Source: a virus
Lineage: Duplodnaviria; Heunggongvirae; Uroviricota; Caudoviricetes
Virus record (IMG/VR): IMGVR_UViG_2531839130_000013
Length of the DNA stretch: 45,266 bases
Direction: 5' to 3' (one strand)
Shown here: positions 4,175 through 14,704 of the stretch, piece after piece
How the letters are laid out: the number at the start of each line of letters is the position of its first letter
Numbering within the stretch: the stretch's first letter is position 1
Position numbers and translations under genes: made by a program
Notes under the pieces: generated by a model
Databases searched by the model: none
What the model was told of the DNA's origin: nothing
What the model saw: only the letters and a program-made list of their open reading frames with translations

Positions 4175-4359
4175 TGTGCACATCCTTTTGGCATCAGACG
4201 TAAACGAGCCAGCATTGAAACAATGCATATTTTATTTAATAGCTCCCCTTCTTGTTTTCTCTTGTTAATGGCATCTTCAGTAAATACTGAGTTACTGATA
4301 GTGACACCAATTTCAAAACAACCTTCAGACGTATTAACGTTTGGTAATAACGTTTCCAT
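4171..4359 (-). CDS. dicB: Cell-division inhibitor DicB-like protein (62 aa)
   Basis: Internal Met of the 97-aa track ORF gives METLLPNVNTSEGCFEIGVTISN...LMPKGCAQ, 62 aa, matching my recollection of DicB almost residue for residue; GAGGA Shine-Dalgarno about 9 nt upstream; directly downstream of the DicF sRNA as in Qin. Confidence 0.6.
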   Translation of the reverse strand: METLLPNVNTSEGCFEIGVTISNSVFTEDAINKRKQEGELLNKICIVSMLARLRLMPKGCAQ

Positions 4360-6845: not shown

Positions 6846-7217
6846 TCAGGCGCGGCGGCATTTTTGCGCCGCAATCCATCTCGCTATGAGATCTTCCATT
6901 GATTCTTTTTTCTGCTTTAACTCGCTGATTATCTGGCGTTGCTCATCCTCAGGGAAGGCTGAAAAAATCTGCAATAATTCCAGTTGATTAGACGTTAACC
7001 CTGCATGTGGTGGAGAAACCTCCGGTTGTTCTGCGTATTCCGCATCCAGATACCCTTCCGGCATCCCGTATGTTTGCTCTATTCTTCTGGCAGCCTTTTC
7101 TCCAAACGAGGCTCTCCCACTCATTAGTTGAGATAGGTAGCTCTTCTCTTTGGGTGGCAGAGTTTTATCTTTAAACCACTCCTTGAGACGTAAACGGCGA
7201 ATTTCTTTTTTTTGCAT
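6846..7217 (-). CDS. Phage repressor-like HTH regulator (cI/DicA/PaaR-like), probably leaderless
   Basis: HTH-like segment KSYLSQLMSGRASFGEKAARRIEQTYGMPEGYLD; C-terminal LELLQIFSAFPEDEQ resembles the DicA C-terminus. Start set at MQKK (7217) because the longer 158-aa reading runs through the divergent promoter and the cro-like start; a GATAAT -10 sits 6 nt upstream of this ATG. Confidence 0.7.
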   Translation of the reverse strand: MQKKEIRRLRLKEWFKDKTLPPKEKSYLSQLMSGRASFGEKAARRIEQTYGMPEGYLDAEYAEQPEVSPPHAGLTSNQLELLQIFSAFPEDEQRQIISELKQKKESMEDLIARWIAAQKCRRA

Positions 7218-7223
7218 GTGGTA

Positions 7224-7305
7224 ATTATCTTTAGTAATCACTAAACAAGCAAATACTTGACTTAATGGTTTATTAAACACTAAACTCTCAAAAAAAACAC
7301 TAAAC
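7224..7305. promoter_or_regulatory. Divergent promoter/operator region: leftward pRM-like promoter, rightward pR-like promoter, three CACTAAAC repeats
   Basis: Leftward -10 GATAAT (7224-7229 on +) and -35 TTGCTT (7247-7252) with 17-bp spacer; rightward -35 TTGACT 7257-7262, 18-bp spacer, -10 TAAACT 7281-7286; direct repeats CACTAAAC at 7239-7246, 7278-7285, 7298-7305. Confidence 0.45.
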
Positions 7306-7315
7306 CGAGGAAGGT

Positions 7316-7618
7316 ATGACATTAAAAGAGTTTATTAAATCATTGAGGGTTGGTGATGCTAAGAAATTCGCAGCCAGACTTGGTGTATCGCCATCTTACT
7401 TATCGCAAATGGCGTCTGGACGAGCAGCTATATCTCCAACACGCGCCCTTATGATCGAATCTGCGACGGAAGGCCAAGTAAGTAGGGCGGAGCTACGACC
7501 CCATGATTGGGAGCTTATTTGGCCTGAGTATGCGAGCGGCATTCGTTTGGGGCAAACACATGTAGTTCATGCTGAAGGTGATTGTAGTGCATGCTTATCT
7601 GATGGAGTTGATTCATGA
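7316..7618 (+). CDS. Cro-like HTH protein (YdaS-like)
   Basis: 100-aa ORF divergent from the repressor, GAGGAAGG SD; HTH-like FAARLGVSPSYLSQMASGRAAISPTRAL; position equivalent to cro. Confidence 0.65.
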   Translation: MTLKEFIKSLRVGDAKKFAARLGVSPSYLSQMASGRAAISPTRALMIESATEGQVSRAELRPHDWELIWPEYASGIRLGQTHVVHAEGDCSACLSDGVDS

Positions 7619-8040
7619 AAATCAAGCATGAACACATCCGCATGGCGATGAATGCCTGGGCGCATCCGGACGGTGAAAAAGTTCCGGCTGCGAAAATTAC
7701 CAAAGCGTATTTCGAGCTGGGAATGACGTTCCCGGAACTGTATAACGACAGCCATCCGGAAGCCCTGGCTCGCAATACTCAGAAAATTTTCCGCTGGGTG
7801 GAGAAAGACACCCCTGATGCGGTTAAAAAAATTCAGGCGTTGTTACCAGCTATCGAAAAAGCAATGCCGCCTCTGCTGGTGGCCCGAATGCGCAGCCACA
7901 GTTCAGCCTGGTTTCGGGAGCTGGTGGAGACGCGGGAACGGCTGGTGAGAGACGCTGATGATTTTGTCGCAGTGGCGATCGCTGGTTTCAACCAGATGAA
8001 TCGTGGTGGCCCTGCAGGAAATATTGTGGCTGTGCATTGA
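7615..8040 (+). CDS. YdaT-like protein (cII-position regulator / putative toxin family)
   Basis: 141-aa ORF starting MKIKHEHI..., overlapping the stop of the Cro-like gene; synteny and N-terminus resemble Rac prophage YdaT as I recall it. Confidence 0.5.
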   Translation: MKIKHEHIRMAMNAWAHPDGEKVPAAKITKAYFELGMTFPELYNDSHPEALARNTQKIFRWVEKDTPDAVKKIQALLPAIEKAMPPLLVARMRSHSSAWFRELVETRERLVRDADDFVAVAIAGFNQMNRGGPAGNIVAVH

Positions 8041-8105: not shown

Positions 8106-9152
8106 GTGAGTATGGCTAACGCCTGGCTCAGATTATGGCATGACATGCCAAACGATCCTAAGTGGCGAACAATTTCCAGGTTGTCAGGACAGCCAATCGC
8201 AACAGTGATGGCTGTGTATATCCACCTTCTGGTGAGTGCGTCACGAAATGTCACGACATGTCACGGTGTGTCACTACGTGGTCACATTGATGTCACGGCG
8301 GAAGATTTAGCAAGTGCGCTTGATGTGACGGAAGAAGTAATTGATTCAATTTTACAGGCAATGCAGGGGCGGGTACTTGATGGAGATTTGATCAGTGGAT
8401 GGGAAAAACGCCAGGTACTGAAAGAGGACAATGGCAACGTTTCACAAACCGCGAAATCCCCGGCAGAGCGCAAGAGAGCGCAGCGCGAGAGGGAAAAATT
8501 ACGAAAACAGAATGAGGGGGCGCGCGACGAGTCACGCATCTGTCACGACATGTCACGACGAGTCACGACAGATAAAGATACAGATAAAGAATTAAACCCC
8601 ACACATAACGCGCGCGTGCGAGAGAGTGCTCCTGCCAGTGAGGCAAATGGCGTGCCGTTGCAAACAGCGGAACCTGATTACCTGGAAGGCCTGAGCGAAC
8701 CCATCGGGAAATTTCCGATGACCGATGGCTGGCATCCGTCGCCGGATTTTCGACGACGGGCTGCGCTGTGGGGCGTGGCTCTTCCTGAGCCGGAATTTAC
8801 ACCAGCTGAACTTTCCGCCTTCCGGGACTACTGGGCAGCGGAGGGCAAAGTGTTCACGCAGGTTCAGTGGGAGCAGAAATTCGCCCGTCACGTAAATCAC
8901 GTCAGGGCGCAGGCTAAACCAGTCAGCAAGGGGGTAAACCATGCAGCAGCACCAGGTGGCACCGCATCACGGGCAGTTCAGGAAATTCGGGCAGCACGTG
9001 AGCAGTGGGAACGTGAAAACGGATTTATCAGCGACGGAAACGGCCTGGAAGCTGTGGGAACTCATGGGGGAGGTTTATTCGAACCGCTGGACCCAGAAGA
9101 ACGGGGCCGCACCTTCGAAGCTCTGGATTGCACAGATTGGCGCGATGACTGA
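8106..9152 (+). CDS. Replication initiation protein (O-like; YdaU/DUF1376-type N-terminus)
   Basis: 348-aa ORF with N-terminal WLRLWHDMPNDPKWRTI motif; two clusters of TGTCACG iterons lie inside the coding sequence, as the lambda ori lies inside O; immediately followed by a P-like gene. Confidence 0.65.
   Translation: MSMANAWLRLWHDMPNDPKWRTISRLSGQPIATVMAVYIHLLVSASRNVTTCHGVSLRGHIDVTAEDLASALDVTEEVIDSILQAMQGRVLDGDLISGWEKRQVLKEDNGNVSQTAKSPAERKRAQREREKLRKQNEGARDESRICHDMSRRVTTDKDTDKELNPTHNARVRESAPASEANGVPLQTAEPDYLEGLSEPIGKFPMTDGWHPSPDFRRRAALWGVALPEPEFTPAELSAFRDYWAAEGKVFTQVQWEQKFARHVNHVRAQAKPVSKGVNHAAAPGGTASRAVQEIRAAREQWERENGFISDGNGLEAVGTHGGGLFEPLDPEERGRTFEALDCTDWRDD
8239..8298. repeat. Iteron cluster 1: about six copies of (T)GTCACG at roughly 10-bp spacing
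   Basis: gcgTCACGaaaTGTCACGacaTGTCACGgtgTGTCACtacgtgGTCACattgaTGTCACG read directly from the sequence. Confidence 0.6.
8527..8564. repeat. Iteron cluster 2: four copies of GTCACG(A) followed by an A/T-rich tract (8565-8595)
   Basis: GAGTCACGcatcTGTCACGacaTGTCACGacgaGTCACGacag then gataaagatacagataaagaattaaa; iterons plus AT-rich region are ori-like. Confidence 0.55.
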
Positions 9153-9606
9153 GCAGCAAATCCGACAGGTCTGCCGCCAGTGCATGGACCGCTGCCGGGC
9201 GGGTGAAACATGGCCTCCGGACCTGGCTGAGTTTGTGGCACTGATTTCGGAGAGTGGGGCAAATCCATTTGGTCTGACGGTGGATGCTGTGATGGAGGAG
9301 TACCGTCGCTGGCGCAATGAGTCCTGGCGATACGACGGAAGCGATAAATACCCATGGACTCAGCCTGTGCTGTATCACATTTGCCTCGAGATGCGTTCAA
9401 AGGGGATTGAGCGCCAGATGACCGAAGGGGAATTAAAACGGCTTGCAGAACGGCAGCTGACGAAATGGGCAAAGCATGTTAGTAACGGCCTGAGCGTTCC
9501 GCCAGTCCGGCGACAACTGGCGGCACCCAAACGCCCGTCGGGACCAACGCCAATTGAGTTACTGAAACAGGAATATGAACGCCGGAAAGCGGCTGGGTTT
9601 GTTTGA
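8941..9606 (+). CDS. Replication protein P-like helicase loader
   Basis: C-terminal two-thirds align by eye with lambda P ([14 protein letters not shown] / [27 protein letters not shown]...[11 protein letters not shown] / YPWKSNAHYWLVTNLY...AELRRKAADEL). 5' end overlaps the initiator gene; true start may be the Met at 9064. Confidence 0.6.
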
Positions 9607-9640
9607 GTTGAGAAGTAATTTTTACCGGGAGGAAATTTTA

Positions 9641-10402
9641 ATGGAGACCGTTTTTGACGCACTGAAAGCGATGGGAAAAGCTACGTCGGTAGAACTGGCT
9701 GAGCGACTTGATATCAGTCGTGAAGAAGTGCTGAACGAACTATGGGAACTGAAAAAGGCTGGTTTCGTTGATAAAAGCGCGTACACCTGGCGTGTGGCTG
9801 ATAACAACGTTCAGCAGGAACAGCCAGCGCCAGAAGAACAGCCGGAAGAAACCTCCACGGCGACAGTAGCGAAAATCTCAGAGTGCGATTTAACCGCGAC
9901 GATTGAACAACGCGGACCACAAACGGCTGATGAGCTGGCTACATTGTTTGGTACCACATCACGCAAAGTGGCTTCAACGCTGGCAATGGCAATCAGCAAA
10001 GGCCGTCTGATTCGTGCTAATCAGGACGGTAAATTTCGTTACTGTATGCCGGGCGATAATTTACCAGCAGAGCCGAAAGCAGCATCGGTAGCGGAAACTG
10101 ATGGTAAAGCCTTTCCTCAGCCTGCATGCGTTGCGTTACCAGTACAGGAAGCTGCAACACAGGAAGATATTAAAACAGAGACTGTGGCGGACATTGTGCA
10201 GTCGCTGCCATCGTTTACTGAAACGCGAGCGGATGACCTGGTTTTACCATCGCTGCATATGGCAAACCGCGAACTGCGTCGGGCGAAAAATCATGTCCAG
10301 AAGTGGGAGCGAGTCTGCGCCGCGCTGCGGGAGCTGAACAAGCACCGGGATATTGTACGACAGATTACTGATTCTTCCCGCCATGTTGCATCGGAAAAGT
10401 GA
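9641..10402 (+). CDS. Hypothetical protein with N-terminal winged-helix-like segment (253 aa)
   Basis: Start [12 protein letters not shown]... with GGGAGG SD; N-terminal [28 protein letters not shown] looks like a wHTH; acidic/Q-rich linker. Confidence 0.5.
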
Positions 10403-10834
10403 TTGCCGGAGGCACCTGTGGCAAAAGTATTTACACCAGAAGAGCGGGAAAAAATTAAAGGGCAGGTTATTGAACTCGTGCGCCAGAGTGGGCGCGAGAC
10501 GTTACGGCAACTGGAAGCTAAAACAGGGGCGACAAGATACCTGATGAGCGTTCTCGCCAGAGAGCTGGTTGCCAGTGGTGATGTATACAACTCTGGCTAC
10601 GGGTTATTCCCGTCTGAACAGGCTCGTAAGGACTGGATAAAGGCCCGCAAAAAGATGTCGAAAGCAGCAGTGAAAAAAAAGAGCGACCCGGACTTGGTTT
10701 ATTCATTACCAGACGGAGAAATACGTCGTTACAACAGACGACAGAACATAATCTGTCGCGAGTGCCGGAAGAGTGAGGTTATGCAGCGAGTGCTGGCGTT
10801 TTATCAGGGGAATTTTGAGGAGGAGGTACTGTGA
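10403..10834 (+). CDS. Hypothetical protein (143 aa)
   Basis: ORF abutting the previous stop; contains a CxxC pair near the C-terminus (CRECRKSE); no family recognised. Confidence 0.4.
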   Translation: MPEAPVAKVFTPEEREKIKGQVIELVRQSGRETLRQLEAKTGATRYLMSVLARELVASGDVYNSGYGLFPSEQARKDWIKARKKMSKAAVKKKSDPDLVYSLPDGEIRRYNRRQNIICRECRKSEVMQRVLAFYQGNFEEEVL

Positions 10835-10891
10835 GTGAAATTAGCTATCAGTCTTCAATTACCGCTGGCATTCGCATCAAAGGAGAGGAGC

Positions 10892-11251
10892 ATGGAAATA
10901 AAACCAGAAGATGAGTTAAGTAATATTGTTTTATTTCCGGTAAAAGAGGATGACCCACGTAATCAGGTTAATTTTCTTTATGAGCCATCGGAAAGACCAT
11001 GCTGCCATCACGCTTCTGTCCGGGTTGACGAAAAAGAGCGTCAGGTCCGCTGTAAAATCTGCGGTGCAGTTGTGGAGCCATTTGACTGGATGCTCTCTGT
11101 GGCGAAAAGAGAAACCAGACTGGCAGATGGTGTAAAACAATTGCGTCAGGAGGAACGGGAAAGACGGAAAAATATAGAAAAGTTAATTCAGATTGAGCGT
11201 AACGCGAAAGCGCGGATACGCAGGGCGAAAAAAACAGAACTGAATAATTAA
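10892..11251 (+). CDS. Hypothetical zinc-ribbon protein (119 aa)
   Basis: Start MEIKPEDE with strong AAAGGAGAGGAG SD; Cys/His cluster CCHH...C.IC suggests a zinc ribbon; basic C-terminal tail. Confidence 0.5.
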   Translation: MEIKPEDELSNIVLFPVKEDDPRNQVNFLYEPSERPCCHHASVRVDEKERQVRCKICGAVVEPFDWMLSVAKRETRLADGVKQLRQEERERRKNIEKLIQIERNAKARIRRAKKTELNN

Positions 11252-11395
11252 ATTTAGCACTGTAAATAATTTTAATCCTTAACCTGAGGGATTTCTGCAC
11301 CCTCAGAACATCAGTAGGCCGCCCGAAAGGGCGGGAAGCAGTCACACATTTGTTTCCGATAGTCCCGTTCTAATGCTAGACTATTTGATATTTTC

Positions 11396-12082
11396 ATGAC
11401 CACAATAAATACGTTTATGACAGTTGCTGATTTCAAACGGCCTAAATTGGAGCTCCCAAACGGGGCAAACAAACTACTACTGCACTCTTGCTGTGCTCCA
11501 TGTTCCGGTGAAGTGATGGAGGCGCTTCAGGCCTCGGGAATCGACTACACCATCTTTTTCTACAACCCGAACATTCATCCTCAGAAAGAGTATTTAATTC
11601 GTAAGGATGAGAATATTCGCTTTGCTGAACAACACGGCGTGCAGTTTATCGATGCTGATTACGACACAGACAACTGGTTTGAACGTGCCAAAGGAATGGA
11701 ATGGGAGCCCGAGAGGGGGATCCGTTGTACCATGTGTTTTGACATGCGTTTTGAGCGGACAGCGTTGTACGCTGCTGAAAATGGTTTCAGTGTGATCAGC
11801 AGTTCGCTGGGCATTTCACGCTGGAAAAATATGCAGCAGGTTAACGACTGTGGGCGGCGAGCCGTCGCGCATTATCCGGGAATGGTGTACTGGGATTATA
11901 ACTGGCGCAAGCAGGGCGGCTCGTCCCGTATGATTGAAATCAGCAAGCGCGAAAAATTCTATCAGCAGGAATATTGTGGCTGTGTGTATTCTCTGCGCGA
12001 TACCAATCTACACCGCAAATCTCAGGGACGCCCTCTTATCAAAATTGGTCAACTCCACTACGGTAAAGAAGAGAAGGAGTGA
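11396..12082 (+). CDS. queH: QueH-like protein (DUF208, epoxyqueuosine reductase family)
   Basis: N-terminal [11 protein letters not shown] motif plus downstream conserved Cys (CTMCFD, YCGCV) match the signature of QueH/DUF208 as I recall it; stand-alone gene between replication genes and the hok locus. Confidence 0.6.
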
Positions 12083-12262
12083 TTTTATGGATCACCTTTC
12101 TGATTGATTTCATATTGGCGAGGTAGCAGGAGTTAAGTAGAATTGCTGCGGGTGCTTGAGGCTATCTGTCTCAGGCATGAACACCAAAAGGCAGATAGAG
12201 AAAAGCCCCAGTTAACATTACGCGTCCTGCAAGACGCTTAACATTAATCTGAGGCCATATCT

Positions 12263-12322
12263 ATGCGACACATAGAGATTAGCCTCTTACGGACCGAAAG
12301 GTCAAGGAGAAGCGGGCTATGA
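12263..12322 (+). CDS. Short leader ORF (19 codons) whose stop overlaps the hok ATG (mok-like coupling ORF)
   Basis: atgcgacacatagag... ends in TGA overlapping the hok ATG (cTATGAag); the leader region is rich in inverted repeats typical of hok mRNAs. Confidence 0.3.
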   Translation: MRHIEISLLRTERSRRSGL

Positions 12323-12474
12323 AGCAGCGAAAGGCGATGTTAATCGCCCTGATCGTCATCTGTTTAACCGTCATAGTGACGGCACTGGTAACGAGGAAAG
12401 ACCTCTGCGAGGTACGAATCCGAACCGGCCAGACGGAGGTCGCTGTCTTCACAGCTTACGAACCTGAGGAGTAA
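12319..12474 (+). CDS. hok: Hok/Gef-family type I toxin (51 aa), HokD/RelF-like
   Basis: Hand-translated: MKQRKAMLIALIVICLTVIVTALVTRKDLCEVRIRTGQTEVAVFTAYEPEE, essentially the Hok/RelF sequence; AAGGAGAAG SD upstream; below the size threshold of the ORF track. Confidence 0.85.
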   Translation: MKQRKAMLIALIVICLTVIVTALVTRKDLCEVRIRTGQTEVAVFTAYEPEE

Positions 12475-12544
12475 GAGACCTGGCGGGGGAGAAATCCCTC
12501 GCCACCTCTGATGTGTCAGGCATCCTCAATGCACCCGCACTTAA

Positions 12545-12569
12545 CCCGCTTCGGCGGGTTTTGTTTTTT
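12545..12569 (+). terminator. Intrinsic terminator downstream of hok
   Basis: cccgc-ttcg-gcggg stem-loop followed by an 11-nt T-rich run. Confidence 0.6.
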
Positions 12570-12641
12570 CTGAGCATCCTGGTTTACAATCCACATGCCA
12601 GCCTGAACAACTGGCACCTGCTGCGCCAGCAGAGAAAACAG

Positions 12642-12914
12642 ATGGCGCACAAGACCAAATTACACAATTCTGATACCGTTCGTGCCAGCAGGCACGGGCG
12701 GTGTTCGCACGCATTCAAATATGACTGGTATCAGCACGACCCCTGCACTGAAGAACAGGCCGAATGGCTGATTCATAACTACCGCAGACGTGGGTATGAG
12801 TTTAGGAAAGCCCTCAGCCTCGATTATCGTCACTGGATAATCTACGTCAGACTCCCTTATTCCGAACGCCCACCGCGTCCGTCCCGCACATTCCAGCAAC
12901 GCATCTGGAGGTAA
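12642..12914 (+). CDS. Hypothetical protein (90 aa), in the position of Qin rem
   Basis: Start set at MAHKTKLHN because the longer reading runs through the hok terminator; Cys/His-containing small protein; named by synteny only. Confidence 0.4.
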   Translation: MAHKTKLHNSDTVRASRHGRCSHAFKYDWYQHDPCTEEQAEWLIHNYRRRGYEFRKALSLDYRHWIIYVRLPYSERPPRPSRTFQQRIWR

Positions 12915-12915
12915 C

Positions 12916-13965
12916 GTGCGGGTATTACTTCGACCTGTTCTGGTGCCGGAACTTGGGGTGGTTATCGTTAAGCCAGGTCGTGAATCCATGCAGGTATTCC
13001 ATAACGGCAGAGTGCTGGTTGAACCGGAGCCAAAAAGCATGCGCGGTCTGCCGTCCGGGGTCGTTCCTGCCGTTCGCCAGCCGCTGGCGGAAGACAAATC
13101 TCTGCTGCCATTTTTCAGCGATGAGCGGGTGATTCGTGCTGCCGGCGGCGCTGGTGCACTGTCTGACTGGCTCCTGCGTCATGTTAAATCCTGCCAGTGG
13201 CCTCATGGTGACTACCATCACAGTGAAACCGTCATACATCGTTACGGTACCGGCGCGATGGTGCTGTGCTGGCACTGCGACAACCAGCTGCGTGACCAGA
13301 CATCCGAATCACTCGGGCAACTTGCTCATCAAAACCTGTCAGCATGGATGATTGACGTCATACGCCATGCAGTGAATGGCACGCAGGAGCGGGAATTATC
13401 GCTGGCTGAATTATCCTGGTGGGCGGTCCGCAATCAGGTGGCGGACGCGCTTCCGGAGGCAGTATTACGTCGTTCTCTGGGGTTACGTGCGGAAAAAATC
13501 CGCTCTGTGTACCGTGAAAGCGACATCATACCGGGAGAGCAGACAGCCACCAGCATACTGAAGCAGCGCACAAAAAATATTGTGCTACCGCCTCACGCCC
13601 ACCAGCAACAGAACCCACCACAGGAAAAGACGGTGGTCAGCATTGCCGTTGATCCGGAGTCTCCTGAATCTTTCATGAAGCGACCTAAACGTCGCCGCTG
13701 GGTTAACGAAAAGTACACGCGCTGGGTTAAGACACAGCCGTGTGCATGTTGTGGTAAGCCAGCCGACGATCCCCATCACCTGATTGGTCACGGTCAGGGA
13801 GGGATGGGGACAAAAGCCCACGATATTTTCACGCTACCGCTGTGCCGGGAGCATCACAATGAACTTCATGCTGATCCGCTGGCATTTGAAGAAAAGCATG
13901 GTTCCCAGATTGATTTAATTTTTCGTTTTCTTGATCACGCCTTTGCAACCGGCGTGCTCGGGTAA
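12916..13965 (+). CDS. DUF968-family protein with C-terminal HNH-like Cys/His motif (YdfU-like)
   Basis: GTG start with GGAGG SD; C-terminus CACCGKPADDPHHLIGHGQGGMGTKAHDIFTLPLCREHHNELH is HNH-like; 349 aa like Qin YdfU. Confidence 0.55.
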   Translation: MRVLLRPVLVPELGVVIVKPGRESMQVFHNGRVLVEPEPKSMRGLPSGVVPAVRQPLAEDKSLLPFFSDERVIRAAGGAGALSDWLLRHVKSCQWPHGDYHHSETVIHRYGTGAMVLCWHCDNQLRDQTSESLGQLAHQNLSAWMIDVIRHAVNGTQERELSLAELSWWAVRNQVADALPEAVLRRSLGLRAEKIRSVYRESDIIPGEQTATSILKQRTKNIVLPPHAHQQQNPPQEKTVVSIAVDPESPESFMKRPKRRRWVNEKYTRWVKTQPCACCGKPADDPHHLIGHGQGGMGTKAHDIFTLPLCREHHNELHADPLAFEEKHGSQIDLIFRFLDHAFATGVLG

Positions 13966-13977
13966 AAGAGGTTACTG

Positions 13978-14349
13978 ATGCGTATAGAGTTTGTTTTGCC
14001 TTACCCGCCAACGGTGAACACCTACTGGCGACGTCGTGGCAGTACATATTTTGTATCAAAAGCCGGTGAGCGTTATCGCCGTGATGTGGCGCTCATTGTT
14101 CGCCAGCAGCGACTGAAATTAAATCTGTCCGGAAGGCTGGCGATCAGGATTATTGTGGAGCCACCGGATAAGCGCCGTCGTGACCTGGACAATATCCTGA
14201 AAGCGCCACTGGATGCACTGACACATGCGGGACTGCTTATCGACGACGAGCAGTTTGATGAAATTAATATTGTGCGCAGTCAGCTTGTACCTGGTGGTCG
14301 GCTGGGCGTGAAGATTTACGAAATTACAGGTGGTAACGATGGCACGTGA
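13978..14349 (+). CDS. rusA: Holliday junction resolvase RusA
   Basis: Translation aligns with E. coli RusA including DRRRRDLDN...DALT catalytic region; typical nin-region position upstream of Q. Confidence 0.8.
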
Positions 14350-14704
14350 TATTCAGATGGTTCTTGAGCGTTGGGGAGCGTGGGTGGCAAATAATCATGA
14401 GGATGTCACATGGCCATCGATTGCTGCTGGCTTTAAAGGATTAATACCGTCGAAAGTTAAATCGCGTCCGCAATGTTCCGACGATGACGCAATGATCATT
14501 TGTGGCTGTATGGCCCGGTTGAATAAGAACAACAAAGAATTACACGATTTGCTGGTAGATTATTACGTGGCGGGCATGACGTTTATGGCGCTAGCACGAA
14601 AGCATGGTCGTTCGGATTGCTGGGTTGGCCGTTTGTTGCAAAAGGCTGAAGGGATAGTTGACGGCATGTTGATGATGCTTGATATCAAGCTGGACATGGA
14701 CTGA
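14330..14704 (+). CDS. Late-gene antiterminator Q-like protein (about 120 aa, QuuD-type)
   Basis: Position immediately after rusA and before the lysis-side cargo; size matches short Q-family antiterminators; Cys-containing IICGCMARL segment. Start probably MARDIQ at 14339. Confidence 0.5.

Follow-up and report, generated by a model that had tools for sequence, protein, structure and literature searches.

The gene ren of phage lambda enables the phage to escape Rex exclusion. An interaction of Ren with RexB was recorded in a yeast two-hybrid map (PMC3224144), and a bacterial two-hybrid test found the Rex proteins to interact with O as well as with Ren (bioRxiv 10.1101/2021.04.19.439022), while ren is dispensable in lambda (PMC10695390). 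For YdaW of the Escherichia coli K-12 Rac prophage, the truncated form, a pseudogene product, scored upon over-expression as blocking RcaT, the toxin of retron-Sen2. NinH of lambda, a Fis-like small DNA-binding protein, reportedly acts as a homodimer (PMC7166090). In addition, genes 38 and 25 of phage T4 constitute the precedent for a translation initiation region in which the Shine-Dalgarno (SD) sequence and the AUG are split by a hairpin (PMC3014915).

The locus compared here with these systems lies in a window of 45,266 nucleotides, the whole stretch of DNA that was analysed, from a virus of the Caudoviricetes (IMG/VR record IMGVR_UViG_2531839130_000013). Positions 9641-11334 comprise three real genes, termed g1, g2 and g3, and two stable hairpins behind them, HP1 and HP2 (Table 1). 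The gene order of the window reads YdaS, YdaT, O-like, P-like, g1, g2, g3, queH, hok/sok, DUF968, RusA and Q, and the region is the nin-equivalent part of a Rac/lambdoid early-right (PR-type) operon, as a first-pass annotation of the DNA had proposed. The three reading frames of 253, 143 and 119 aa, which that annotation placed between the helicase loader and queH, are all present and all subject to purifying selection (dN/dS 0.14-0.52 for g1, 0.16-0.25 for g2 and 0.10-0.15 for g3), and its description of g1 as a winged-helix and of g3 as a zinc-ribbon protein agrees with profile matches and AF2 models. Its remark that no known family could be named for any of these proteins had to be abandoned, since each belongs to a catalogued one. 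The locus is an ordinary one with three accessory genes that are probably non-essential. The reading preferred here, to which we give an even chance as a whole, is that of a mosaic of accessory genes with a Ren-like protective role, a nin-region protein encoded by g3 and a relic of a split ribosome-binding site at the terminal junction.

Table 1. Features of the locus and its immediate neighbours, in coordinates of the window.
Feature	Position	Strand	Matches and remarks
Lambda-P-like helicase loader, upstream neighbour	8941..9606	+	PF06992 1.9e-16; phrog_109 6.3e-63
g1, YdaW family (DUF1627), 253 aa	9641..10402	+	PF07789, phrog_630
g2, DUF977 / Ren-like ('LygF' in phage records), 138 aa	10418..10834	+	PF06163, phrog_142
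g3, PHROG-1621 protein, 119 aa	10892..11251	+	phrog_1621 3.2e-55
Junction start CTGAATAATTAAATTTAG	11240..11257	+	Read directly from sequence; alignments A3, A4
HP1 CTGAGGG/CCCTCAG	11284..11306	+	7 bp, 9-nt loop, -11.5 kcal/mol
HP2 with degenerate Shine-Dalgarno AGTAGG	11313..11334	+	AGGAGG in most relatives
HP2 CCGCCC-GAAA-GGGCGG	11319..11334	+	GNRA loop, -13.8 kcal/mol
queH cargo gene directly 3' of HP2	11396..12082	+	PF02677 1.6e-65

The product of g1 is a member of the DUF1627/YdaW family, as it covers the whole Pfam model far above the gathering cut-off (1.1e-98; 327.8 bits where 28.1 are required; all of model positions 1-155) and matches its PHROG over positions 1-252 of 253 (1.2e-130). 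A further Pfam match concerns HTH_20 (3.9e-6), and the ATG start codon is preceded by GGAGG 7 nt upstream. The AF2 model, with a mean pLDDT of 64 that rises to 75-86 within the domains, features a first winged helix (residues ~1-50), a disordered acidic linker, a second winged helix (~78-136) and another disordered linker, which is followed by a long helix (~194-252). Foldseek comparison of this model with the PDB retrieved only generic winged helices of the MarR, ArsR and ScpB kinds (E >= 2e-3). A weak match of g1 to phrog_142 (2.6e-5) is a hint only; paralogy of g1 and g2 beyond the common winged-helix fold received no support, as hhalign of the two was not significant (1% probability).

For g2, the frame of 143 aa had been opened at TTG 10403. 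The frame itself is genuine, but the real start is GTG 10418, which yields 138 aa, because the homologues begin with MAKVF; a GGAGG at 10408-10412 lies ahead of this codon. The protein belongs to the DUF977 family, its score exceeding the Pfam gathering cut-off (1.1e-30, 106.9 bits against 22.1, model positions 2-133 of 134). Moreover, it shares membership of PHROG 142, annotated as 'Ren-like exclusion protein', with lambda Ren by the sequence criterion, the two proteins matching this profile near full-length with E-values of 3e-46 and 1.6e-41, respectively. An N-terminal winged helix and a basic linker precede the C-terminal motif N-I-I-C-R-E-C-R-K-S-x-x-M-Q-R-V-L-A-F-Y, which is common to lambda Ren (alignment A7); BLASTP aligns g2 with the Ren C-terminus (E = 5e-7, 33% identity over 58 residues). 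The C-x2-C of g2 was dismissed as a zinc site, since conservation does not extend to its second Cys.

Few prophage sequences of E. coli are as common as parts of this region: some part of it matches 4,619 of 5,426 complete genomes (85%). Within this wide distribution g1, g2 and g3 reassort independently among phages, the preceding loader being either P-like or DnaC-like, and none of the three is universal, each being absent from certain phages of the collection (vB_EcoS-666R9, PPompW, mEp460 and Tritos). In the L042 locus, the identities to g1, g2 and g3 are discordant, with 68%, 63% and 95%, respectively. Because of this reassortment the three genes do not form one unit. The first-pass annotation had regarded them as novel proteins without family, constituting a single anti-defence or host-takeover unit closed by the two hairpins; its claims on family assignment and on the single unit are already refuted, and as a whole this view is improbable. 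What speaks for it are the hints from Ren and YdaW. They are opposed by the catalogued families, the spread of parts of the region over 85% of the complete E. coli genomes, the independent assortment together with the position of g3 next to Q elsewhere, and the lack of relatives in PADLOC and the PDB: PADLOC gave weak HTH-type matches only for the three proteins, the best being g1 against CARF/Csa3 HTH regions (E = 8.5e-5), and single-sequence searches of the PDB with each of them returned nothing but weak wHTH or coiled-coil noise (E >= 0.22). The opposite outcome, an assignment of all three to housekeeping replication or nin families, applies by half, as g3 represents a nin-region family by position whereas g1 and g2 are accessories linked to the replication module.

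Under the preferred reading, the locus would be a mosaic stretch of the early-right operon, in which three independently reassorting, non-essential accessory genes are followed by a conserved junction. g1 and g2 would then be small winged-helix proteins that travel with the replication module irrespective of the loader type, and their most likely role, as suggested by the homology to Ren, would be to shield phage replication and early development against abortive infection or exclusion exerted by the host or by resident prophages. This shielding would probably occur by direct protein binding, as for Ren with RexB and RexA, rather than by sequence-specific control of transcription. The sharing of a PHROG and a motif between g2 and Ren, as well as the effect of K-12 YdaW on RcaT, lends the anti-defence idea some indirect support; against it count the lack of recognisable rex genes in the window, the failure of lambda Ren to reach PF06163, the modest similarity of g2 and Ren and the origin of the retron result from an over-expressed, truncated pseudogene product. 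Another role, less probable yet worth serious consideration, is that g1, g2 and perhaps g3 serve the replication module as accessories and tune prophage DNA replication instead of countering defence, the winged-helix proteins binding the origin, the loader complex of O with P (or its DnaC-like counterpart) or the host replisome. The genes always follow directly on the helicase loader, whatever its family, lambda ren even overlaps the end of P, and the tandem winged helices resemble protein adaptors of the ScpB type; furthermore, the group of Court and Thomason calls ren 'likely involved in DNA replication' and observed the interaction of Rex with O and Ren (bioRxiv 10.1101/2021.04.19.439022). 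Such a role is opposed by the dispensability of ren in lambda (PMC10695390) and by the absence of each gene from some collection phages whose replication modules are otherwise similar.

The third protein, g3, is a member of PHROG 1621 by its profile match, its conserved putative ligands and its C-terminal helix. A disordered N-terminus leads to a small putative zinc ribbon (C38, H40, C54, C57) and a long basic helix (residues 63-118) with the conserved motif NIEKLIQIERNAKARIRR. Among 115 remote members, three of the ligands in the pattern C-x-H...C-x2-C (C38, C54 and C57) are invariant, while H40 is kept in at least 90%; the assignment of these Cys and His residues is based on alignments A1 and A6. 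The AF2 model reaches a pLDDT of 75, with values above 90 in the helix. At 50% identity the family, for which Pfam has no entry, comprises 1,658 clusters (E <= 1e-3). Comparison with known domains yielded little: the Pfam scan gave no family above the cut-off and only a weak match to Zn_Ribbon_TF, the fold search against the PDB and BFVD gave nothing significant (a generic zinc ribbon at E = 0.35), and profile searches of the PDB with A1 and A6 returned weak noise alone.

Outside Escherichia, a g3 homologue is situated immediately upstream of the antiterminator gene Q in 17 of 18 species, with partners from 3-4 different Q families and a stop codon that often overlaps the start codon of Q, whereas g3 and Q are kilobases apart in the window and in most Escherichia prophages, cargo genes being located in between. 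According to the preferred reading, g3 would be a nin-region protein consisting of a zinc ribbon and a long helix, whose ancestral place would be that of the last gene before Q. It is conceivable, though we consider it a long shot, that PHROG-1621 proteins, with their TFIIB-like zinc ribbon and basic helix, are an unrecognised partner of lambdoid late-gene antitermination. The family would then consist of zinc-ribbon and coiled-coil factors that are co-translated with Q and contact RNA polymerase or Q itself, and could act on either to time late transcription. Adjacency to several Q families, the overlapping codons and the nature of the weak best matches, which are zinc ribbons of the TFIIB type and thus of a polymerase-binding module, are consistent with such a function; the probability is kept low by the cargo that separates the two genes in Escherichia, by the lack of g3 in collection phages bearing the rest of the module and by the insignificance of the fold matches. 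Moreover, the gene may occupy this place only because the nin region ends there, beside nuclease genes of the NinG, RusA or YbcO type.

Downstream of g3, a junction of ~95 nt is found in 2,672 of the 5,426 E. coli genomes. At the beginning of this junction every reading frame meets a stop (TGA 11241, TAA 11245, TAA 11249, which is the g3 stop, and TAG 11255), HP2 forms its end, and its start is kept behind differing upstream genes, namely g3, an Ea22-like gene or a short remnant after DUF977 (A3, A4). Both hairpins exist where the first-pass annotation had located them, including the GNRA-tetraloop stem, and are stable; folding of the 161-nt stretch gives z = -2.99 relative to shuffles, and the HP2 pattern has a chance expectation of 0.06 in the window. 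In relatives, the conserved pairs of HP1 are limited to the inner GAGGG/CCCTC, and only 54 of the 85 HP2 copies in IMG/VR are preceded by HP1. Covariation within the hairpins was not significant, with a single compensatory pair that likewise occurred in 129 of 500 shuffles, because HP2 is nearly invariant. Rfam models (E <= 1) matched nothing at HP1 or HP2 in a scan of 9000-13000, the only matches there, sok and a weak isrK-like one, being located downstream, and the HP2 sequence was not found in a search of the literature. Pas sRNAs, which a 2026 preprint connects to DUF1627 neighbourhoods, were excluded here, as they adjoin lysis genes instead. An antitermination RNA of the HK022 put-like or nut-like kind was likewise dropped for the hairpins, since position, stem lengths and the missing boxA do not appear to fit.

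The initial observation that a T-tract is missing was confirmed: the tails behind HP1 and HP2 read GAACATCAG and GAAGCAGTC, respectively, and no terminator was called on either strand within 11284-11340, which leaves stems devoid of the U-tract of an intrinsic (Rho-independent) terminator. The hairpins do not represent the end of an operon; HP2 belongs to a conserved junction of the SD-hairpin-AUG type, of which the window holds a degenerate copy. An SD-like word (GGAG, GAGG or AGGA) was found at most 9 nt before HP2 in 84 of 96 copies at fetched loci, an ATG 2-11 nt behind it in 84 of 96 as well, and 78 of the 85 IMG/VR copies carry an ATG at +6 to +9 that opens a reading frame. This layout precedes at least 5 gene families, with intact copies, for instance, ahead of genes for DUF7167 (GGAGG-HP2-TAGTTAA-ATG) and DUF4014; in other genera, the stretches that separate g3 homologues from Q lack HP2-like elements. 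The layout is present in the relatives and incomplete in the window, where the SD reads AGTAGG and neither ATG, GTG nor TTG occurs within 16 nt. In nearly all of the 4,201 places with homology in E. coli, this homology breaks off at 11334-11337, and the HP2-queH junction is rare (3 of 5,426 E. coli genomes).

In principle, the hairpins may constitute a signal at the level of transcription, i.e. a factor-dependent or leaky terminator, a pause site or a stabiliser of the 3' end of processed early mRNA, which appears unlikely. The stops in three frames at the entrance of the junction, the two stable stems, the termination of homology blocks exactly at HP2 and a positional analogue in lambda, whose intrinsic terminator tR2 lies 28 nt after ren, all suit this explanation, but neither a U-tract nor a terminator call is available on either strand, and 31 of the 85 HP2 copies occur without HP1. 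Furthermore, most copies possess GGAGG just before HP2 and the next start codon 2-11 nt after it, which suggests co-transcription and translation instead of termination. In the preferred reading, HP2 supplies the hairpin to a split, portable ribosome-binding site, which would consist of the SD GGAGG, the 16-nt GNRA hairpin, TA(A/G) and an AUG 2-11 nt further on and which, in thousands of E. coli prophages, would drive translation of any gene placed after the junction. In the window, a queH cassette would have been inserted right after HP2 and the SD would have decayed, leaving a relic and a recombination boundary. Because the SD has decayed to AGTAGG, the ATG is absent and queH is inserted, HP2 in the window is, as judged from its sequence, apparently the relic of a split SD-hairpin-AUG initiation region that marks a mosaic boundary. 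The conservation of HP2 is equally well accounted for by a role at the DNA level, e.g. as a recombination boundary sequence.

As a routine instance of very common prophage genes, the window itself changes little. Nevertheless, few accessory genes of E. coli prophages are as widespread as DUF1627 and DUF977/Ren, and the link to Ren together with the retron result for YdaW makes both families cheap candidates for counter-defence screens. The tight linkage of the g3 family to Q across Enterobacterales provides a testable lead on late-gene control. In addition, the junction of GGAGG, hairpin and AUG has the look of a reusable boundary of translation and recombination cassettes in lambdoid mosaics; it would extend the idea of the split ribosome-binding site from T4 to temperate phages and could improve the annotation of start sites.

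Compared with the described systems, g1 is closest to K-12 YdaW. Both belong to one family (DUF1627, PF07789, PHROG 630), follow a loader gene and contain the pair of winged-helix domains, yet K-12 YdaW is a truncation of 186 aa lacking the C-terminal helix while g1 represents the full form, and the loader is of the DnaC type (YdaV) in front of the former and of the lambda P type in front of the latter. In an analogous manner, g2 and lambda Ren belong to one PHROG, possess an N-terminal winged helix each, share the motif N-[IL]-[IV]-x-[RK]-E-C-R-[KQ]-S-x-x-M-[QK]-R-V-L-A-[FV]-Y and are encoded in the PR operon shortly 3' of the helicase loader. They differ in length, as g2 with 138 aa carries a basic insertion of ~45 residues relative to the 96 aa of Ren, in Pfam membership, since Ren does not match PF06163 (DUF977) at E < 0.01, and in arrangement, g1 intervening between the P-like gene and g2 where lambda has the overlap of P and ren. 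For g3, the resemblance to NinH is one of size and place: both are small proteins of the distal nin region, encoded after a NinG-type nuclease gene and before Q, although in lambda ninI is also positioned between ninH and Q. No sequence relationship was found between the two, NinH did not match g3 in the Pfam scan (E <= 1), and with its zinc ribbon and helix g3 lacks the Fis-type HTH and falls outside the NinH family; a dimer is reported for NinH and a mere guess for g3.

Concerning the junction, lambda tR2 and HP1/HP2 are intergenic stem-loops at a matching operon position, but tR2 consists of an 8-bp GC stem followed by TTTTTATTT, whereas a T-tract is lacking behind both HP1 and HP2. The initiation regions of T4 genes 38 and 25 offer the closer parallel, for in these as in the HP2 junction SD and AUG are 18-27 nt apart and a stable tetraloop hairpin shortens this distance to ~2-11 nt. 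Unlike its T4 counterparts, the HP2 element features a GNRA (GAAA) loop and is reused ahead of at least 5 unrelated gene families as a mosaic junction, and the copy in the window departs from them further by its mutated SD and missing AUG.

The window is a Rac/lambdoid prophage, and g1, g2 and g3, the three genes between the lambda-P-like loader and queH, lie in an ordinary, very common prophage segment of low novelty whose members are of known kinds. All three ORFs are present as the first-pass annotation described them, and codon-level comparison with homologues from the fetched loci yielded dN/dS values of 0.10-0.52, hence all three are real coding genes. The earlier view that none could be assigned to a family cannot be upheld: g1 matches DUF1627/YdaW as a full-length member (PF07789, 1.1e-98; phrog_630), g2 belongs to DUF977 (PF06163, 1.1e-30) and to PHROG 142, "Ren-like exclusion protein" (3e-46), and g3 falls in PHROG 1621 but reaches the cut-off of no Pfam family.

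Features in gene order (window positions; last row, fetched loci)
Feature	Position	Remarks
YdaS-type Cro	7316-7618	early-right operon
YdaT	7615-8040	early-right operon
O-like initiator with DnaT domain	8106-9152	early-right operon
lambda-P-like loader, longest ORF	8941-9606	early-right operon
g1	9641-10402	253 aa
g2	ORF opens TTG 10403; start GTG 10418	138 aa
g3	10892-11251	119 aa
HP1, hairpin	11284-11306	3' of g3
HP2, GNRA hairpin	11319-11334	3' of g3
queH, epoxyqueuosine reductase	11396-12082	PF02677, 1.6e-65
hok/sok type I toxin-antitoxin	12150-12474	directly after queH
Hok ORF	12319-12474	51 aa
isrK-like match	12483-12564	weak
Hairpin with T-run	12543-12560	3' of hok
ORF	12513-12914	133 aa
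DUF968	12916-13965	early-right operon
RusA	13978-14349	early-right operon
Antiterminator Q	14330-14704	early-right operon; PF06530
Double GGAGG-CCGCCCGAAAGGGCGG-TA unit	L050 2364-2379 and 3428-3443	also L044, L069, L112, L124, L140, L172, L180, L191

Among the neighbouring genes, the O-like ORF and the longest P-like ORF overlap by 212 nt; since the PHROG alignment of the P-like protein begins near residue 42, translation of P probably starts 3' of the first codon of this ORF. The sok element matches Rfam at 105.5 bits (gathering score 59), while the isrK-like match reaches 27 bits, under its gathering score of 50 (E = 0.005), its end being the sole terminator-like hairpin with a T-run in that stretch. 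A phage family (phrog_1212) covers just the C-terminal 66 residues of the 133-aa ORF, and the real gene there is likely to be far shorter.

The N-terminus of g1 carries an additional winged helix (HTH_20), and in the AF2 model residues ~1-50 and ~78-136 each form a confidently folded winged helix and residues 194-252 a long C-terminal helix, with two disordered linkers in addition; Foldseek hits were confined to generic winged helices, of the MarR/ArsR kind or in tandem (ScpB). K-12 YdaW of the Rac prophage is, compared with g1, a 186-aa truncation of DUF1627 that lacks the C-terminal helix; its gene was picked up as one that blocks the toxicity of retron-Sen2 RcaT. The start of g2 is placed at the GTG, which is preceded by GGAGG, because homologues begin MAKVF. 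Lambda Ren likewise matches PHROG 142 (1.6e-41) and aligns to the C-terminus of g2 (E = 5e-7), sharing the motif N-I-I-x-R-E-C-R-K-S-x-x-M-Q-R-V-L-A-F-Y, and phage records name the g2 gene LygF or "Ren-like exclusion protein".

The favoured reading is that small winged-helix adaptor proteins of the g1/g2 type would protect replication and early development against exclusion systems, because of the escape of lambda from Rex exclusion that Ren reportedly allows (a finding ascribed to Toothman and Herskowitz, 1980), the Ren-RexB and Rex-O-Ren interactions, the dispensability of ren and the effect of ydaW on RcaT. The Ren-RexB contact stems from a yeast two-hybrid map (PMC3224144), ren is dispensable in lambda (PMC10695390), and interactions of Rex proteins with O and Ren were obtained by bacterial two-hybrid (bioRxiv 10.1101/2021.04.19.439022). 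The authors of the latter work regard ren as probably replication-related, which supports a serious rival, namely a direct replication-accessory role of small winged-helix proteins.

Two modest testable leads emerge, the linkage of g3 to Q and a portable SD-hairpin-AUG junction (SD, Shine-Dalgarno). The g3 family comprises 1,658 clusters at E <= 1e-3 when its profile is run against 1.84 billion representatives and is spread across Enterobacterales in one-genome-per-species data. C38, H40, C54 and C57 are invariant and the C-terminal helix is very conserved in an alignment of 49 sequences, and the three cysteines remain invariant among 115 remote members. The AF2 model shows a disordered N-terminus followed by a small zinc ribbon and a single long helix, with no significant match in PDB or BFVD (best, TFIIB ribbon, E = 0.35). 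Among 18 non-Escherichia loci (L007-L025, one genome per species, homologue at ~7001-7390 of each), 17 have the g3 homologue directly upstream of the antiterminator Q, 16 as immediate neighbours and one with a small intervening ORF. These Q genes represent three to four families (PF06323, PF06530, phrog_753, phrog_127), the upstream gene encodes NinG, YbcO, RusA or an HNH nuclease, and stop and start codons often overlap. Therefore, g3 is a distal nin-region gene at roughly the position of lambda ninH/ninI, although NinH is unrelated in sequence. This linkage and the weak TFIIB-ribbon resemblance are the sole leads to its role.

Some proteins with an ead/Ea22-like annotation hold a near-complete g3 as their C-terminal part (P0015, P0055; L028 2368-2880; L032 3421-3840). 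Ea22-like genes, too, end at this ...CTGAATAATTAA junction, and in-frame recombination inside this variable segment is suggested.

Of 5,426 complete E. coli genomes, 4,619 match some part of 9500-11400 and 149 contain 80% or more of it, DNA identity to the window being only about 90-93%. IMG/VR contigs with exact g3 copies and the same gene order exist; L034 (IMGVR_UViG_2534681703_000014, 45,442 nt) has a 100% identical g3 in the order O, P, g1, g2, g3, HP2, queH, DUF968. The three genes are no fixed unit. The block is preceded by a P-like loader in some cases and by a DnaC-like one (YdaV) in others; L003 and L033 encode DnaC-like, DUF977 and g3 without g1, PPompW prophages have g1 and lack g2, mEp460, Tritos and HannyBb have g2 and lack g1, and phage vB_EcoS-666R9 and several E. 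coli prophages carry g1-g2 without g3. Within a single locus, identity to the window was 68, 63 and 95% for g1, g2 and g3, respectively. The g3-queH junction occurs in only three of the 5,426 genomes. The queH gene is prophage cargo inserted exactly 3' of HP2, and its product has a 98% identical counterpart encoded downstream of g3 in L004 and L006 (E. coli ECMA0423 and S. flexneri SFBU1023); no SD precedes either candidate queH start.

The two hairpins lie at the coordinates given in the first-pass annotation (HP1, -11.5 kcal/mol; HP2, -13.8 kcal/mol), and the fold of the 161-nt hairpin region is 3 sd more stable than that of shuffled sequences. Neither hairpin is followed by a T-tract, as had been noted, and no terminator-like site was scored, whereas in lambda the corresponding place 3' of ren is occupied by tR2, a true intrinsic terminator with a T-tract. 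The implied operon-end reading finds no support, and an ATG soon follows HP2 in most relatives. The 156-nt stretch 3' of g3 matches at 4,201 places in 2,672 of 5,426 E. coli genomes, nearly all matches stopping at 11334-11337, the 3' end of HP2, and only three genomes running on into queH. This conserved junction opens with CTGAATAATTAAATTTAG, in which every one of the three frames meets a stop; upstream lies g3, an Ea22-like gene or DUF977 plus a short remnant, downstream DUF7167, DUF4014, a phrog_660 protein, an HNH gene, Q or queH. HP2 is almost invariant and HP1 retains only its inner five pairs, covariation being not significant.

The fetched loci hold 96 HP2 copies, with 18 distinct flank variants; of these copies, 84 have an SD-like GGAG/GAGG/AGGA word in the 9 nt before HP2 and 84 an ATG 2-11 nt after it; the two sets are not identical, and most copies have both. 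A second, independent set of copies, drawn from IMG/VR with the unit as anchor, shows in 78 of 85 cases an ATG at +6 to +9 that opens an ORF; these ORFs represent at least five gene families, and HP1 is missing in 31 of the 85. The exact 23-mer of the GGAGG-CCGCCCGAAAGGGCGG-TA unit occurs in >120 IMG/VR contigs, and some prophages carry the unit twice, about 1 kb apart, each directly before a start codon. The HP2 of the window is best read as a relic and mosaic boundary, because AGTAGG stands in place of its SD, HP2 is followed by no start codon and queH begins 61 nt further on; other queH-type junctions depart from the pattern likewise. In their sequence layout, HP2 copies with both SD and ATG correspond to the split ribosome-binding sites of T4 genes 38 and 25, in which a hairpin shortens the spacing between a remote SD and the AUG to a functional one (PMC3014915).
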